This document shows positions 2,308-48,210 of a DNA stretch of 64,000 nucleotides, piece by piece. Position 1 is the first letter of the stretch, and the number at the start of each line of letters is the position of its first letter. Origin of the DNA: a virus; the IMG/VR virus record IMGVR_UViG_3300032242_001844; one strand, given 5' to 3'. The translations under genes and the position numbers were made by a program. A model generated the notes under the pieces. The model saw only the letters and a list, made by a program, of their open reading frames with translations. It had not been told where the DNA came from and ran no database searches.

Positions 2308-3762
2308 ATGGATATTCAAAAATTATTTCCAATTTTTGATCCAACCACTGGATTGGCAATTATTGGAATTTATGCAGTTTTTGTTTTTTTCTTAACCAAT
2401 TTTTTTGCTAAAGGTTTTGATAAAAACAAGGAAAGTTTTCTAGTTGCTAATCGTGAGATTGGTTTTTGGCAAGGTTCGTTCTCAGCAGGTGCTGCGTGGA
2501 TTCACGCACCAGGACTGTTTGTAGCAGCGCAGCAGGGCTATAACAACGGTTGGCCAGGCGTTCTATGGTTTAGTTTCGGTAACTTTTTTAGTTACATTGT
2601 TTTTGCTTATTTTATTAATAAGTTTAGAAATGAAAACGGAAAGCTATTCACGCTAAGTGAGTATTTCAAAGGAAAATGGGGTGGATTTATCAGTCTGCTT
2701 ATTGTAGTTCAGATGTTATTATTAACACTGCAATCATTAACTATTGATTTATTTGCTGGATCGCAAAGTGTTGCCATTGTAACTGGATTAAGTCCAATTT
2801 TAGTTTCGGCACTACTGGTTGGCATTGCGCTTACATATTCACTTCGTGGTGGCATTAAAGCATCTATCATTACTGATGTTGTAAAGATTGTAATGATATT
2901 TGTAGGCGTTGCCGTAGTTGGATATTCTGTGTACAGCGTAACAGGTGTACAGCCAATTATAGACGGCATTGCAGGTAAAGCAGGTAAAGGAACATCTCTA
3001 TGGAGTGATAGTTTTGCGTTAGGTTTATTATTTGGATTTGGCGTACCAACTGTTATTGGGCACTTTGCAAGTGCATGGACAACCAATGAAGGATTCCAAA
3101 ATGCTTTTAGTATGAAACCTAATGTTGCATTAAAAGCTTATATCGCTGCGCCATTTTACTGGTTAGTTCTTCAACTTATTGGTGGACCACTTGGTATGAT
3201 TGCTGCTTCAATGCATATTGATGCTGGTACTAAATCTGGGTTTGTTAACTTAATGGTAATGGCAAGTGTAGTAGGACCATGGTTAACCCTTGTATTCTTG
3301 ATTACTGTATTTGCTGGTCTTATTAGTATCATTGATACAATGTTAATCAATAGTGCAAATATTTTTGGTAGTGATATTCACGATTATTTCAAAGGAAAAA
3401 ATCCTGTATTGTGGAGTCGTATTGCTATGATTGGATTTGCTGCAGTAGGAATTACATTAGCAAATATTCCAGGACTTGATTTAAATACTATTTTCTTGTT
3501 CGGCAAAACATTTCAATTGTGTTTCTTTATCCCAGTCGTAATGGGCATTCTTGCACCACACTTCCTTACAAAGTGGGGATTTATTAGTGGTGCCGCTGTA
3601 GGATCACTAATTGGTTCTCCGATATATGTTTGGGGATTGTTGCTTGGCGGTGGTCCTATTATTCAAGTAACTGGAACACTTATTCAAGTATTTGGTGCTG
3701 GTATTGTTTGTTATGTTGTTAGCAAAATAACTGCGCCACAACAAATTGCCGTTGCAGTATGA
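2308..3762 (+). CDS. Sodium:solute symporter (SSS family; PutP/DUR3-like)
   Basis: 484 aa with about 13 hydrophobic segments; ESFLVANR and YSLRGGIKASIITD SSS motifs. Confidence 0.85.
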   Translation: MDIQKLFPIFDPTTGLAIIGIYAVFVFFLTNFFAKGFDKNKESFLVANREIGFWQGSFSAGAAWIHAPGLFVAAQQGYNNGWPGVLWFSFGNFFSYIVFAYFINKFRNENGKLFTLSEYFKGKWGGFISLLIVVQMLLLTLQSLTIDLFAGSQSVAIVTGLSPILVSALLVGIALTYSLRGGIKASIITDVVKIVMIFVGVAVVGYSVYSVTGVQPIIDGIAGKAGKGTSLWSDSFALGLLFGFGVPTVIGHFASAWTTNEGFQNAFSMKPNVALKAYIAAPFYWLVLQLIGGPLGMIAASMHIDAGTKSGFVNLMVMASVVGPWLTLVFLITVFAGLISIIDTMLINSANIFGSDIHDYFKGKNPVLWSRIAMIGFAAVGITLANIPGLDLNTIFLFGKTFQLCFFIPVVMGILAPHFLTKWGFISGAAVGSLIGSPIYVWGLLLGGGPIIQVTGTLIQVFGAGIVCYVVSKITAPQQIAVAV

Positions 3763-4232
3763 ATAAAAAAATACTAATAATGGGCTTGCCAGGGTCGGGT
3801 AAAACTACTCTGGCGAAAGCCTTGGCACCAAAATTGAAAGCAGTTCACTGGAATGCAGACGCTGTTCGTGCTAATATCAACAGTCATCTTGGTTTCAGTG
3901 AAGCAGATCGTATAGAACAAGCTAGACGAATGGGTTGGCTATGCGATCAAGTTGTGGCAGCAGGTTCATGGGTGATAGCTGATTTTGTATGTCCTACACC
4001 AGCCACTCGTGCAGCCTTTGGACCTGCTACTGTTATTTGGGTTGATACGATTAAAGAAGGCAGATTTGAGGATACGAACAAGTTGTTTGTAAATCCAGAA
4101 CCAGGCAGTTATTACTTTCGTGTAGATACACAAGATGCGCTATTCTGGTCAAAGTATATCATGGAAGAACTTGACTTTGATACGCATCCAACTTGGATTA
4201 AAGCAATGATTAAAGGATTAAAATTATCATGA
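3759..4232 (+). CDS. cysC: Adenylyl-sulfate (APS) kinase-like
   Basis: GLPGSGKTT P-loop, NADAVR, LGFSEADRIEQARR, DFVCP. Confidence 0.75.
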   Translation: MNKKILIMGLPGSGKTTLAKALAPKLKAVHWNADAVRANINSHLGFSEADRIEQARRMGWLCDQVVAAGSWVIADFVCPTPATRAAFGPATVIWVDTIKEGRFEDTNKLFVNPEPGSYYFRVDTQDALFWSKYIMEELDFDTHPTWIKAMIKGLKLS

Positions 4233-8835: not shown

Positions 8836-8935
8836 AAAATTTCAAAGTCAGTGTGCAGCCCCCATCTATCGCCCACACCGTGACACATCCCATCGCCATT
8901 GCGGATTGTTTACTGTGCCTTACCGTCTCTTATAT

Positions 8936-9011
8936 TGGTCTCCGTGTCTGGCGCTGCCCCAGATTCCCCGCAGTCCAAGTGCGGTATTAATCTTACCCTA
9001 ACTCCACAGAG
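8936..9011 (-). tRNA. Atypical tRNA-Pro(UGG)
   Basis: C1-G72, A73, CCA, stem CCGCA/TGCGG with CT-TGG-AC; T-loop GGCAGCG and G8 are non-canonical. Confidence 0.7.
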
Positions 9012-9150: not shown

Positions 9151-9226
9151 TGCCTGTCGTATGGGGATCGAACCCATCTCTCAACCGACTCCGCAGTTGT
9201 ATCCTATTCCCATAGACGAACGACCA
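9151..9226 (-). ncRNA. tRNA-like RNA with 8-nt anticodon loop (pseudo-tRNA)
   Basis: Intact T-arm ATGGG-TTCGATC-CCCAT and D-arm; loop GCGGAGTC lacks U33; imperfect acceptor; no full CCA. Confidence 0.6.
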
Positions 9227-9256
9227 GTAGGTTTGCAACCCTACTGTTGGCAAACT

Positions 9257-10614: not shown

Positions 10615-10670
10615 TTAAAAATCTCCATTTCTTTAATAGTATTTATAACAGTTAAAGAAAATAGCATCGC

Positions 10671-13146: not shown

Positions 13147-13208
13147 TGAGCGGCAGCGGGGAATCGAACCCCGTGGTTGTTAGTTAAAGCACCCATGCAA
13201 ACCACCGC
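13147..13208 (-). ncRNA. Anticodon-armless tRNA-like RNA (Gly-type acceptor)
   Basis: Acceptor GCGGTGG/CTGCCGC-T73, perfect T-arm CGGGG-TTCGATT-CCCCG, mini D-arm, no anticodon stem. Confidence 0.65.
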
Positions 13209-14959: not shown

Positions 14960-15003
14960 ATTACTAATATATCATGTTTTTTTAAGGTTGTCAAGAGAAA
15001 AAT

Positions 15004-15077
15004 TGGCACCACCGCTAGGATTTGAACCCAGACCAAAGGTTTTGGAGACCCTTACGCTACCATTACGCCACGGTGAT
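15004..15077 (-). tRNA. tRNA-Trp(CCA)
   Basis: CT-CCA-AA, G73, CCA; first tRNA of the array in transcription order. Confidence 0.95.
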
Positions 15078-15175
15078 GTATTAAATTTTGCCTTGCTGAA
15101 ACCACCTGCATCCATTTGGAGCCAGTACTAGTCAAGGGCTACTCTTATGCTTGGGGAGTAGCGTCCCGTAGATAT

Positions 15176-15206
15176 AAAAAAACCCCCGAAACTTTCGTTT
15201 CAGGGG
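15176..15206 (-). terminator. Intrinsic terminator of the putative attenuator
   Basis: CCCCTGAAAC-GAAA-GTTTCGGGGG followed by T7. Confidence 0.9.
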
Positions 15207-15250
15207 CAAGTGCATACTCTAATGTGCGATCACATTAGGCACACGCCCCC
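15202..15250 (-). promoter_or_regulatory. Antiterminator hairpin of the putative attenuator
   Basis: GGGGGCGTGTGC pairs with GCACTTGCCCCT around inner CTAATGTG-ATCG-CACATTAG, sequestering CCCCT of the terminator. Confidence 0.75.
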
Positions 15251-15315
15251 TCAATCCAGAAACCTTCTGGCATGCGGCAAATGTTATAATCATTATGTTT
15301 AGGCGTGTTAGTCAT
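15235..15315 (-). CDS. Leader peptide, 26 aa, MTNTPKHNDYNICRMPEGFWIEGACA
   Basis: GAGAG SD about 5 nt before ATG; the stop TAA lies inside the antiterminator. Confidence 0.75.
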   Translation of the reverse strand: MTNTPKHNDYNICRMPEGFWIEGACA

Positions 15316-15337
15316 GTTTGCTCTCAATTTGTAGTTC

Positions 15338-15367
15338 TATTTATACACGATAAAAAATATTTGTCAA
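15338..15367 (-). promoter_or_regulatory. Promoter of the leader/tRNA transcript (sigma70-like and T4 late-like overlap)
   Basis: TTGACA-N16-TATAAA; the -10 box is also a perfect TATAAATA. Confidence 0.7.
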
Positions 15368-15370
15368 GAA

Positions 15371-16300
15371 TTATTTTATGCTTGCCCAAACTTTTTTTAC
15401 ATCACTCTTTTGTGCAGTAGTTAGCGGAACATAATCTAGTTCTTCTGCCATCTTGTCATTAGCATAGCCAAATTCAAAAAACTTGATTGCAGCCTTTGAA
15501 GCATCACTATCGCTTGGTGCTTTATACATTACGATATAAGAAGTAGCAACCATTGGCCAAGTAGTTTGGAAAGCCTTTAGGCTTGGAGAAACTGCCTTGC
15601 CATCGCTACCAATCATATTAGCTGTAGTAAGATCATTCTGCTTTGCATATGCATATTCTACATAACCAATTGAACCATTGGTTTGTTGAACATTAGCTGC
15701 AACGCCAGCGTTACCATTAGCGCCAATAGCACCGCCTATCCATTCAATTGATTGTCCAAAGTTATATGTCTTCTTCCAATCGGCATTTGCTTCTGCAAGG
15801 AAGCGTGTGAAATTCCAAGTAGTACCGCTACCATCACTACGACGAATCTTAATGATTGGAAGATCAGGTAGTGCAACACCAGGATTGATTGCTGCAATTT
15901 CCTTGTCATTCCAACGCTTGATCTTTTCCATATAGATTTTAGCAAGGATATCGGTTGAAAGCGTTAGCTTGCCACTTGCAACTTCTTTGAGATTTACAAC
16001 TGGAACAATACCACCAACGATCATAGGGAACTGTACTTGACCTTTCTTTTCTAGGTCTTCTGGCTTTACTGGAATGTCAGTAGCACCAAATGTAACTGTT
16101 TTAGCTTCAATCTGCTTCATACCTGCGCCACTACCGATTGATTGATAGTTTAGTGTATTGCCTGAACTCTTCTTATAAGCATCTGCCCATTTTGCATAGA
16201 TTGGATATGGGAAGGTAGCACCTGCACCTGTAATTTCAGCAGCATAAGCTGCTGTACCAATAATCGTTGCTGCTGCAACTGCGAGTAGTCTGGTTAGCAT
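15371..16300 (-). CDS. pstS: Phosphate ABC transporter substrate-binding protein
   Basis: Signal peptide; GAGATFPYP, YQSIGSGAG, RRSDGSGTT, IGYVEYAYA. Confidence 0.95.
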   Translation of the reverse strand: MLTRLLAVAAATIIGTAAYAAEITGAGATFPYPIYAKWADAYKKSSGNTLNYQSIGSGAGMKQIEAKTVTFGATDIPVKPEDLEKKGQVQFPMIVGGIVPVVNLKEVASGKLTLSTDILAKIYMEKIKRWNDKEIAAINPGVALPDLPIIKIRRSDGSGTTWNFTRFLAEANADWKKTYNFGQSIEWIGGAIGANGNAGVAANVQQTNGSIGYVEYAYAKQNDLTTANMIGSDGKAVSPSLKAFQTTWPMVATSYIVMYKAPSDSDASKAAIKFFEFGYANDKMAEELDYVPLTTAQKSDVKKVWASIK

Positions 16301-16345: not shown

Positions 16346-16363
16346 ATGACAGTATTATGACAC
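16346..16363 (-). promoter_or_regulatory. Pho box upstream of pstS
   Basis: GTGTCAT-AATA-CTGTCAT matches the PhoB consensus CTGTCAT-N4-CTGTCAY. Confidence 0.8.
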
Positions 16364-17215
16364 TAACTTCATTCCATAATTATTAATTTGATCTGGTATT
16401 ACTAGTCCTGTTTTTTTTATTAGTTTGTTATTTTTAAATGGACGATAATCAACATGGTGGTGCCAACGATTAAAACGCCATACTACTTTGGCAACATCTG
16501 GATGTAAATCAGCTAACATCTGAGATTTTGCCATCGTGCCTTCTTGTTTGTAAAAGTCAGCAGTATTGCCACCTGCCATCCGCTGTGTAGTAACTTTTCC
16601 AGCTAAGAAAGTATTAAATTGGATAGTACAAAACCCATCTTTTAATACTCGTAACGATAGATCGGTGTCTTCATTGTATCGTCCACGCCAACGATATGGT
16701 ATATCGTTTTGTATAAGAAGAATAGAATAAATTCTAGTATTCAGTACAAATGGCGGTACCGCATCCGTTGCTTTGCAGAAACTATAGTAATTAAATCCAC
16801 TTATTGGAACATTTTCATATCTGTCTACAAAATCTTCTGCAATTTTAAATATTGTTCCGCTTTTAACTTCTGCTTTAACATTGCGATTAAAACGATGAAA
16901 CGCATCAAAGTTATCATCCAATACCCAATGTTTAGTTGCGCCTTGGCTTATACTATGTTCCCATGCAAAGTTTCTAGCAGCGCCAGGCCCTTTGCTCTTA
17001 GTGCTTCCAAGATTGTCACATGTATCATATTCATCTAGATATTTTTGGTCAAGTACAAGAATTTTTTTAGGATCAATGACAGCGGCATATTTGTCATATT
17101 CACTTGCTTCGACTACAATATGATATGGCACATTAATTTCTTCTAGTGCTTTACTGGTTAGCCTAGATTCCCATCTGCCTTTAGATACTATATAAACTGG
17201 ATGATTAGGATTCAT
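16355..17215 (-). CDS. GREB1-like/TAGT glycosyltransferase (putative DNA-base glycosylation)
   Basis: VSKGR, WVLDDN, RIYSILLI, RWRGRYNEDTDLSLR, GGNT. Confidence 0.75.
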   Translation of the reverse strand: MNPNHPVYIVSKGRWESRLTSKALEEINVPYHIVVEASEYDKYAAVIDPKKILVLDQKYLDEYDTCDNLGSTKSKGPGAARNFAWEHSISQGATKHWVLDDNFDAFHRFNRNVKAEVKSGTIFKIAEDFVDRYENVPISGFNYYSFCKATDAVPPFVLNTRIYSILLIQNDIPYRWRGRYNEDTDLSLRVLKDGFCTIQFNTFLAGKVTTQRMAGGNTADFYKQEGTMAKSQMLADLHPDVAKVVWRFNRWHHHVDYRPFKNNKLIKKTGLVIPDQINNYGMKLVS

Positions 17216-17471
17216 CTACCCACCGCTTGCTTGCGTTAAGCCCACGAACTAATTGAGGATGCCAAATACTTTTTGTTTTTGGAGTAAGTTTTTGACCAAT
17301 TAATTTACTAAATTCTTCTAATGCTTCTGCGCTGTCAAATCTTACAATGATCTTAGCAAATGGTTCTTGCTTTTCCTGCACAAATTCAGGCATGTTTTTC
17401 CATTCATCGCGTGGATTAAATGTATGAGTTTCCTCTTCTTCAAACAAGTTGTTATCAAGCTGCTTGGTCAT
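17205..17471 (-). CDS. Small protein coupled between the MTase and TAGT genes
   Basis: EWKNMPEFVQ...TKSIWHP; overlaps both neighbours. Confidence 0.65.
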   Translation of the reverse strand: MTKQLDNNLFEEEETHTFNPRDEWKNMPEFVQEKQEPFAKIIVRFDSAEALEEFSKLIGQKLTPKTKSIWHPQLVRGLNASKRWVDES

Positions 17472-18694
17472 TATTCTTCCTCAAATAAATTATTAAACAC
17501 AGTATTAATTTTAGCTTCTTCTCTTTTTTCAACGATTGCAATACGAGCACGAGCAATATCAATATACTCTTGGCTCATCTCAATACCGATAAAGTTAAAT
17601 CCACCAAGCATTGCACCACGACCAGTAGAACCACTGCCCATAAATGGATCAAGAACAGTCCCGTTGGGTGGTGTCACCATCTTGCACAAGTAAATCATTA
17701 AATCAGTTGGTTTTACTGTTGGATGTGTATTTTTTCTAACAGTTGCGCCGCGCTGATAAGCGTTGTTAGCATCTACCTTGCGACCGTCATTTGTTTTTCC
17801 ACCTTCAAAATCATCTAATCCATCATTGCGATCTTGTGGACTTGCTTTTGCGCCATAGAAAAACTTTGACCATTCTGTTTCTATGCTGCCATCATGAATA
17901 AAGTTTGCTGGCCAACGACCAAGATCATTTGGTTTGTACTCTACGCCATTTTGATCTGTATAATATGCGTTAGGACGAAAACCATGCTCGGCGTTTTTCT
18001 TATCTTGTGCCGCCCATCCAGTTCCTATCATAGCTTTTGGTAGTTCGCCTTCAACACGAGTAGCATCAATATTCAGTGCACCTGTGCCATGTTTTAACAC
18101 ATTTTCTGCAACAGTTTTTTCACCCAACGGTTTTCTTGCTACGCAAATTGGTTCATGCGATGGTTTAAGTGCAGTTCCCCATCCGCTCCATTGTTGCGCT
18201 TCTGGCGTTGCGGGATTATCATTTGTAATTCCACCTTTGCGTTCATCGCTCATAACGCCATTATTTGGAAGAGTTGCTGTTTCTCTGCTTTCGCCAGGCC
18301 GCTGTTCAATTGCAGATTTAATATTTTTACTATGTGAACCGCCTGTTAATATCTTGGCATCAATTGCTTTACTAACATCATGATTCTTTGGAAACCCTGT
18401 GCCATACACCCACATAATTTGGTCACGAATTTCAAAACCAGCATCTTCAATGGCAACCGTCATACGATGATATGTGCGTGAACCGCTAAACGCAAGCATA
18501 TGTCCGCCTGGTTTTAACACACGCAGAACTTCACGCCACATATCCGTATTATACGCAATGCCACTGGCATCCCAACTTTTACCCATAAATCCAAGTTCAT
18601 ACGGTGGATCGGTTACAATGCTATCAACGCTATTGTCAGGTAGAGTTTTGAGTTGAACACGACAGTCGCCGTGCAGTAATGTTACATTTGCCAT
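17471..18694 (-). CDS. DNA amino-methyltransferase (N6A/N4C, beta class)
   Basis: TDPPY near the N-terminus, HPTVKP, DPFMGSGSTG near the C-terminus. Confidence 0.9.
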   Translation of the reverse strand: MANVTLLHGDCRVQLKTLPDNSVDSIVTDPPYELGFMGKSWDASGIAYNTDMWREVLRVLKPGGHMLAFSGSRTYHRMTVAIEDAGFEIRDQIMWVYGTGFPKNHDVSKAIDAKILTGGSHSKNIKSAIEQRPGESRETATLPNNGVMSDERKGGITNDNPATPEAQQWSGWGTALKPSHEPICVARKPLGEKTVAENVLKHGTGALNIDATRVEGELPKAMIGTGWAAQDKKNAEHGFRPNAYYTDQNGVEYKPNDLGRWPANFIHDGSIETEWSKFFYGAKASPQDRNDGLDDFEGGKTNDGRKVDANNAYQRGATVRKNTHPTVKPTDLMIYLCKMVTPPNGTVLDPFMGSGSTGRGAMLGGFNFIGIEMSQEYIDIARARIAIVEKREEAKINTVFNNLFEEE

Positions 18695-48155: not shown

Positions 48156-48210
48156 ATATGTGGTAAATTTTTTTTTACAAATGGTATAAATACTTTTATA
48201 GGAGAATCAG

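Follow-up and report, generated by a model that had tools for sequence, protein, structure and literature searches.

Phage tRNA genes are usually viewed as a fixed supplement to codon usage or as replacements for tRNAs cut by defence systems, and the control of their expression is hardly known. The locus studied here, in which a short open reading frame and an intrinsic terminator stand ahead of a phage tRNA array, raises the question of whether transcription of such an array can be set by translation. It lies in a stretch of 64,000 nucleotides (the window; IMG/VR record IMGVR_UViG_3300032242_001844) from a large myovirus that has not been cultured. A tail sheath of 1103 residues and a large terminase are encoded in the window, one contig among its relatives is 338 kb long, and the related contigs appear to be mostly of lake-sample origin. 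The original prediction took positions 15176-15367 of the minus strand for a ribosome-dependent attenuator that would sense the depletion of almost any tRNA. We therefore consider in turn the anatomy of this element, its conservation in related phages, and the signal to which it might respond.

Anatomy and competing folds of the leader

The leader promoter follows directly on a pstS-like gene (PBP_like_2), which ends at 15371 on the minus strand; all features of the window described below are on this strand unless stated otherwise. Just upstream of pstS, an operon at 16355-18694 encodes a DNA N6/N4 methyltransferase, a small ORF, and a TET-associated glycosyltransferase. The promoter (15338-15367) is composed of a −35 element, TTGACA, at 15367-15362, a spacer of 16 nt, and TATAAATA at 15345-15338. 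This last motif occurs only three times in the window, at 10640-10647, at 15338-15345, and, on the plus strand, at 48185-48192, compared with about 10 expected occurrences, and one of the three copies is thus found in the spacer between pstS and the leader. It is possibly a late-promoter motif like that of T4. A Shine-Dalgarno-like GAGAG (15321-15325) is located 5 nt ahead of the ATG at 15315, and the upstream open reading frame (uORF; 15235-15315) runs from there through 26 sense codons to a TAA at 15237-15235.

The RNA of this region can be divided into four segments. Segment 1, formed by codons 3-5 (15301-15308), pairs in the free RNA with segment 2, the last codons of the uORF (15239-15250), and is a candidate anti-antiterminator. 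Between the two, codons 16-20 form a small hairpin (15256-15270) that includes the Trp codon. Segment 2 is also the 5' strand of the antiterminator, the 3' strand of which, segment 3 (15202-15213), overlaps the first 6 nt of the 5' arm of the terminator; an inner hairpin of 20 nt (15219-15238), with the stop codon inside it, caps this helix. The terminator itself (15176-15207) has a stem-loop at 15207-15182 with a GAAA loop and is followed by U7, with a folding energy of −20.0 kcal/mol. Promoter, Shine-Dalgarno motif, 26-codon uORF, inner hairpin, terminator, and competing antiterminator are all located where they had been predicted, and the GAAA cap and the U7 tract were also correctly described, but the terminator stem, given earlier as 10 bp, comprises 11 pairs including a G-U pair. 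The helix between segments 1 and 2 (1:2 helix), in which codons 3-5 pair with the last codons, had not been part of the original prediction. Nor had a conserved structured RNA of about 85 nt (15086-15172), which lies between the terminator and the tRNA-Trp gene and has no promoter of its own in the window.

The 171-nt leader folds with −55.4 kcal/mol, compared with −38.9 ± 3.9 kcal/mol for shuffled sequences (z of −4.2; reached by 0 of 200 shuffles). In the free RNA, 15308-15301 pairs with 15250-15239 and the terminator is intact. We refolded the leader with a ribosome footprint masked from −12 to +13 around the P site, a comparison that had been proposed with the original prediction. With no ribosome present or with a ribosome at the stop codon, the window leader formed the terminator. 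With a ribosome at codon 8 and a transcript ending before the 3' arm of the terminator, the antiterminator was formed instead (15250-15239 with 15213-15202, capped by the inner hairpin). With the ribosome at the same codon but the full-length transcript at equilibrium, the terminator fold won. Since the terminator wins at equilibrium even with a stalled ribosome, the choice between the folds must therefore be kinetic, as it is in classical attenuators. In three relatives (L084, L097, and L105), the antiterminator formed in the masked folds when the P site was at any codon up to about 18 and was lost beyond it. This places the putative sensing window at about codons 1-18, in agreement with the codons 1-20 that had been suggested. 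Taken together, the folds and the pairing tests described below indicate that the antiterminator (2:3) and the terminator are mutually exclusive and that a ribosome on the last codons of the leader would prevent the antiterminator from forming.

Downstream of the structured RNA, ARAGORN detected 20 tRNA genes on the minus strand, from 15077 to 5077, for 16 amino acids. The first is tRNA-Trp (CCA) at 15004-15077, which was also found with Rfam. It is followed by a sigma-70-like promoter at 14966-14994 (TTGACA, 17 nt, and TATATT preceded by TG; 11 of 12 matches), and further promoters are located within the array. Such internal promoters had been pointed out as a caveat to the original prediction, and they do limit what the element can control: because a strong promoter lies directly after tRNA-Trp, the attenuator alone gates only the structured RNA and tRNA-Trp, and it adds to the expression of the rest of the array. 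In the relatives of type C (see below), a promoter-like site also lies between the terminator and the structured RNA. The attenuator is thus not the sole gate of these genes.

Conservation of the module in related phages

The module was found at about 50 distinct metagenomic phage loci, where five leader types (A-E) with very different sequences could be distinguished. The leaders of type A, to which the window belongs, were collected from IMG/VR loci via PstS, a neighbouring protein, and a leader motif, which gave 14 distinct leaders; types B-E were found by searches anchored on the conserved downstream RNA. Fifteen hits of a metagenome pattern search were dropped as chance matches, as they had neither the RNA context nor an ORF of the kind described here. 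At all genuine loci, an ORF of 22-50 codons begins with ATG and ends 49-62 nt before the T-run, and the stop codon sits 24-36 nt ahead of the 5' arm of the terminator in all genuine relatives. The promoter-proximal position of the short ORF is likewise kept in all relatives, and in the leaders inspected by eye, purine-rich Shine-Dalgarno-like motifs lie about 7-12 nt ahead of the ATG. Leaders of types A, B, D, and E are preceded by a promoter with the same layout as that of the window. The module of type C follows a late structural gene, and its leader is headed by a bare TATAAATA without a −35 element. At every locus with enough sequence, a tRNA array lies downstream on the same strand, with tRNA-Trp as the first gene in nearly all type A relatives and tRNA-Ser, -Lys, -Ile, or -Glu in types B-E. 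Searches of cultured-phage genomes in GenBank with the leader and with the structured RNA of types A, B, and C gave no match.

Two further arrangements were noticed among the relatives. In some of them (L004, at about 3930-4010, and L003, L001, and L072), pstS and the leader are separated by an additional unit of about 85 nt, made up of another promoter-like copy and a strong hairpin that acts as a putative terminator; the window has no such unit. The metagenome contig L196 has two copies of the structured-RNA motif on its plus strand (3742-3772 and 9217-9247), 5.5 kb apart, and may carry two modules.

All 14 leaders of type A retain the promoter, the ORF, and every helix, and the two codons after the Trp codon vary freely. 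The pairing of the 1:2 helix is preserved despite changes in L105 and L097, all of which are one-sided; an equivalent helix is built from other sequences in type C and is weak in type B. Type B leaders also have a hairpin of different sequence at the place equivalent to that of the small hairpin in the uORF of the window. Three relatives show a compensatory change from A-U to G-C at one pair of the inner hairpin, and in the same three the stop codon is shifted two codons downstream.

An element with nested helices ahead of a terminator could also be an untranslated riboswitch or protein-binding RNA, with the terminator as its expression platform and the ORF as an accident. The several nested helices, the folding z-score reported above, and the 1:2 helix, which could close an aptamer, would fit such an element. 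However, an ATG-started ORF behind a Shine-Dalgarno-like motif (judged by eye in the inspected leaders), with a stop codon fixed relative to segment 2, is found in all lineages, the would-be aptamer is not conserved between the types, and no Rfam family is matched. Rfam scans of 13 kb and of 321 nt gave matches only at chance level; the best among the leader and riboswitch families was His_leader with 13.1 bits against a threshold of 49 (E value of 9.8). We regard an untranslated RNA switch as extremely improbable.

In each type, the last codons of the leader are complementary to the 5' arm of the terminator and resemble its 3' arm, and the sequences involved differ between the types: types A, B, D, and E pair a G-rich segment with a C-rich one, and type C uses a segment of the GAGCGC type. 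The number of terminator-arm bases paired upstream was no higher in a distinguishable way for real than for shuffled sequences, and we used an energy-gain test instead, in which the 12-16 nt of 5' flank were swapped for random natural k-mers of the same locus. The real flanks gained −11 to −18 kcal/mol, compared with −2 to −7 kcal/mol for the replacements, and p was ≤0.05 in all 25 leaders tested. For the antiterminator pairing of the window itself onto the terminator arm, p was 0.003 against random natural flanks. As a control, ordinary terminators located after ORFs of at least 120 codons were analyzed, and only 3 of 33 reached p ≤ 0.05; the end of pstS in L195, a negative control, gave a p value of 0.91. 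In an alignment of type C, 93% of the cells of the antiterminator helix are paired, compared with 18-40% when the helix is slid, six of its nine pairs have changed on both sides, and its covariation score was reached by none of 500 shuffles. The terminator covaries too. The conservation of the uORF and of the alternative pairing in relatives, on which the original prediction had been made to depend, was thus observed.

The structured RNA is the invariant partner of the attenuator. It lies downstream of it in all genuine loci and is not a tRNA. Its stem 1 shows 6-10 two-sided changes at five pairs and carries an 11-nt conserved loop (alignment A3), a second, long helix covaries by eye, and GTAC, CCAAATGG, and GTGGTTTC are among its invariant single-stranded motifs. 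Rfam has no family that matches it. In the counter-defence reading considered below, it might contribute to the response in its own right, for example in processing, as a decoy, or in antitermination. In some loci of types A and B, a Lys-rich gene of 52 codons with a strong Shine-Dalgarno sequence stands between the terminator and the structured RNA (L087, 683-841 on the plus strand; also L084, L083, L120, L122, and L187), for which no PHROG match was found. As this gene begins right after the U-tract, with no promoter between them, it would be made only by read-through. In two other relatives (L004 and L073), the start of an ORF resembling GIY-YIG-type homing endonucleases, as far as the N-terminal motif can be read, follows the structured RNA, and tRNA-Trp lies about 0.7 kb beyond the latter.

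It could also be argued that the locus simply encodes a small protein, transcribed from its own promoter up to an ordinary terminator, and that the competing fold is incidental or serves only to stabilize the mRNA. The ORF, the Shine-Dalgarno motif, and some residues are indeed conserved, the terminator is strong, and the downstream genes have promoters. This explanation is nevertheless very unlikely. All five types pair the last codons with the terminator arm, although by different sequences, and such pairing is seldom seen at ordinary terminators; a promoterless gene and a promoterless structured RNA follow the terminator, and type C has no third-position bias. The codon-position pattern is weak in type A as well (4, 6, and 10 variable columns at the three positions), so that selection on the peptide and selection on the RNA are inseparable by it. 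Because the arm pairing is kept in the different types and is rare at ordinary terminators, because the helices covary, and because some relatives have the promoterless 52-codon gene, the sequences argue that the element at 15176-15367 is very probably a functional ribosome-dependent attenuator. The logic proposed originally, that is, a uORF with a fixed stop position and an antiterminator overlapping the terminator at the head of a tRNA array, is kept in all five leader types.

The signal to which the leader may respond

Leader-peptide attenuators of the classical type have a run or cluster of codons for the amino acid that is sensed, and the leader of the window has none: its 26 codons hold 16 kinds of amino acids, with no amino acid repeated more than three times. 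The original prediction interpreted this as a broad sampling of amino acids that tracks the tRNAs of the array. For the window alone, the sampling is not significant over the whole 26 codons (p of 0.13 with a proteome null and 0.25 with a nucleotide-shuffle null); 15 or more kinds within 20 residues occur in 3.8% of proteome 20-mers (p of 0.038), which is one test among several. The family as a whole gives a different picture. The 16 representative leaders sum to 291 kinds, compared with 237 ± 6.5 for the proteome null and 248 ± 5.7 for the nucleotide-shuffle null (z of about 8), numbers in which independence is overstated, as the leaders are mutually related. In several of them, 25-50 codons cover 19-20 kinds. 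All 16 contain Trp (6.7 expected), and Cys (3.9 expected) and His (7.9 expected) are each present in 15. Even with this reservation the trend is strong; the broad sampling is supported for the family and is not significant for the window leader by itself, and the composition fits a selection of the family leaders to hold about one codon of nearly every amino acid.

The match between the leader and the tRNA set was not significant. In the window, 18 of 20 leader residues have a tRNA in the array (p of 0.25), and 17 of 20 leader codons are decodable by it (p of 0.05-0.08). All 15 amino acids of the sensing part of the leader had been thought to have a tRNA in the array, but tRNA-Pro, -Ala, -Val, and -Gln are absent from the window according to ARAGORN and the Rfam tRNA model, and as Pro has no canonical tRNA, 14 of the 15 are covered. 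The absence of tRNA-Gln and tRNA-Val had been correctly noted. With the ARAGORN thresholds relaxed to 70%, a tRNA-Pro was still not found in the window. The leader contains two Ala codons among its 26, and neither its Pro nor its Ala codons have a canonical phage tRNA. The leader and the array share two of four missing amino acids, which is not significant (about 0.16 by a hypergeometric calculation made by hand), and codons for Ala, Val, and Gln also occur in leaders of the relatives, with no corresponding tRNA genes in the sequence available.

Two further sites in the array were noted. At about 8935-9010 lies a noncanonical Pro(UGG)-like sequence, located by synteny with L087, which ends in ACCA and has an aberrant T-loop; neither ARAGORN nor Rfam calls it, and a canonical tRNA-Pro stands at the syntenic place in relatives. 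A weak match to the tRNA-like family mascRNA-menRNA (23 bits, E value of 0.63) was obtained at 13150-13208, in the stretch of about 80 nt that separates tRNA-Asp from tRNA-Glu and in which ARAGORN finds nothing.

The invariance of the single Trp codon suggests another reading, in which it is the control codon of a Trp-specific attenuator and tRNA-Trp is the regulated gene. Two observations speak for it: Trp occurs in every representative leader, and the tRNA gene nearest to the module is tRNA-Trp both in the window and in nearly all relatives of type A. In addition, a single Trp codon is enough in the leader of whiB7 from M. smegmatis. Yet Cys and His are enriched too, and the genes that come first in types B-E are those for Ser, Lys, Ile, or Glu. 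The Trp codon of type A lies only 5-6 nt before segment 2, and the antiterminator of the relatives is lost with the P site at about codon 19, so that a ribosome paused at Trp would largely block the antiterminator. A Trp-specific role is made less likely both by tRNA-Trp being first only in type A and by the closeness of the type A Trp codon to segment 2, and we consider it unlikely.

Another alternative is an arrest peptide of the TnaC or SecM kind, in which the conserved nascent peptide would respond to a small molecule or a factor by stalling the ribosome that makes it. Within each type, the motifs around the Trp codon and at the C-terminus are kept, with some synonymous changes, as would be expected of an arrest peptide. 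The motifs differ between the types, however, and in place of a fixed distance, that from Trp to the stop codon varies between types from 6 to about 25 residues, which makes an arrest peptide quite unlikely. Moreover, a stall at or near the stop codon would cover segment 2 and lead to termination, not to read-through.

As codon runs are missing from the family leaders, in which almost all amino acids are represented by about one codon each, we suggest that the speed of decoding in general is most likely sensed. The mechanism would then be as follows. Transcription would start from the conserved promoter, and the 26-codon leader, which we infer to be translated, would be read during its synthesis. 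A ribosome reaching the stop codon would cover segment 2, leaving segments 3 and 4 to pair; the terminator would form, and transcription would end at 15176. If the leader is not translated, segment 1 (codons 3-5) would hold segment 2, and the terminator would also form. With a ribosome held within the first 18 or so codons, segment 2 would be free and segment 1 could not reach it; the 2:3 pairing would then take the 5' arm of the terminator, and RNA polymerase would read on. Read-through would extend into the structured RNA and tRNA-Trp and from there into the rest of the array, adding to the activity of the array's own promoters. The quantity sensed would most likely be the general decoding speed, in the sense of the supply of charged tRNAs of many kinds, and as a result, translation would feed back on the transcription of phage tRNA genes. 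To this statement as a whole, that the element is a four-segment leader-peptide attenuator and a general sensor of decoding speed, we assign a probability of about 0.6.

The same switch has been proposed to be an on-demand counter-defence. In that proposal, a checklist-like leader would read the host tRNA pool, anticodon nucleases that cut tRNAs, or starvation, would stall its translation, and the structured RNA and replacement tRNAs would be transcribed. Codons 6-11 of the window leader specify Lys, His, Asn, Asp, Tyr, and Asn, and the array has tRNAs for all of them. Lys, His, Asn, Asp, and Tyr are the amino acids of the tRNAs that are cut by PrrC and colicin E5. Phage tRNAs are also known to counter tRNA-cutting defences (PMC10264068, PMC11464382, PMC11555353). 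On the other hand, the stretch of codons 6-11 is not kept in L097 or in types B-E, no nuclease is linked to these phages or their hosts, and the array has its own promoters. A simple feedback of supply and demand explains the same anatomy. We therefore hold the counter-defence circuit to be a tentative and rather doubtful possibility and prefer the general sensing of decoding speed.

Comparison with known systems

If this interpretation is true, the phage would gauge translation directly and set the output of its tRNA genes accordingly, and a textbook bacterial mechanism would extend to RNA genes and to viruses. The switch takes up about 190 nt and is self-contained, and the family also brings an unclassified, strongly covarying small RNA. 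Phage T4 provides a point of comparison, as its tRNA cluster has two stable small RNAs (rnaC and rnaD) and interspersed homing-endonuclease genes; to our knowledge, a leader-peptide attenuator has not been described in T4. The family studied here likewise combines a tRNA cluster with a small RNA and, in L004 and L073, with a GIY-YIG-like ORF.

T-box riboswitches are likewise RNA switches with a terminator and an antiterminator, and they report on tRNA charging, as the element of the window may do. However, T-boxes bind tRNA directly and are untranslated, whereas the element of the window has a conserved ORF and no Rfam T-box match. The antibiotic-responsive, ribosome-mediated attenuators in the leaders of resistance genes of the ABCF and efflux kinds, such as vmlR, lmo0919, and bmrCD, also have a short leader without a codon run, and any stall on it frees the antiterminator. 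Their signal is a ribosome-bound drug, whereas nothing in the window points to drugs.

A leader of similar composition is found in the uORF attenuator of whiB7 (wblC) in mycobacteria, which consists of a mixed-composition uORF, an antiterminator, and a terminator; the leaders of the phage family, taken as a whole, are likewise unusually diverse. Starvation for many amino acids and the knock-down of tRNA or synthetase genes cause read-through at the whiB7 attenuator, one codon in the mixed uORF suffices to sense its amino acid, and removal of the single Trp codon abolishes the sensing of Trp (PMC10274678). The original prediction knew of no described example. No account of the attenuator control of phage tRNA genes was found in the literature, and to that extent the statement stands, but sensing through a leader of mixed composition has a precedent in whiB7 (PMC10274678). 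The two systems differ in other respects: whiB7 controls the transcription factor of a stress regulon and has an Ala-enriched uORF, whereas the element of the window is of phage origin, heads RNA genes, and has no homology to it.

In its architecture, the element of the window is similar to the leaders of enterobacterial amino-acid operons, trpL, hisL, pheL, thrL, and leuL, and to pheM (pheST); the pheL version is described in PMC3082878. Like the element of the window, these have a promoter-proximal short ORF, segments that pair as 1:2, 2:3, and 3:4, an intrinsic terminator, and a stop codon placed so that the terminating ribosome covers segment 2. They differ from it in that the leader of the window has no codon run for a single amino acid and in their output, which is biosynthetic or synthetase genes in the enterobacteria but a phage structured RNA and tRNA genes in the window, and there is no sequence or Rfam relationship between them. 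The attenuation mechanism is thus of a known kind, and what is new is its phage origin, the RNA genes as its output, and the checklist-like leader.
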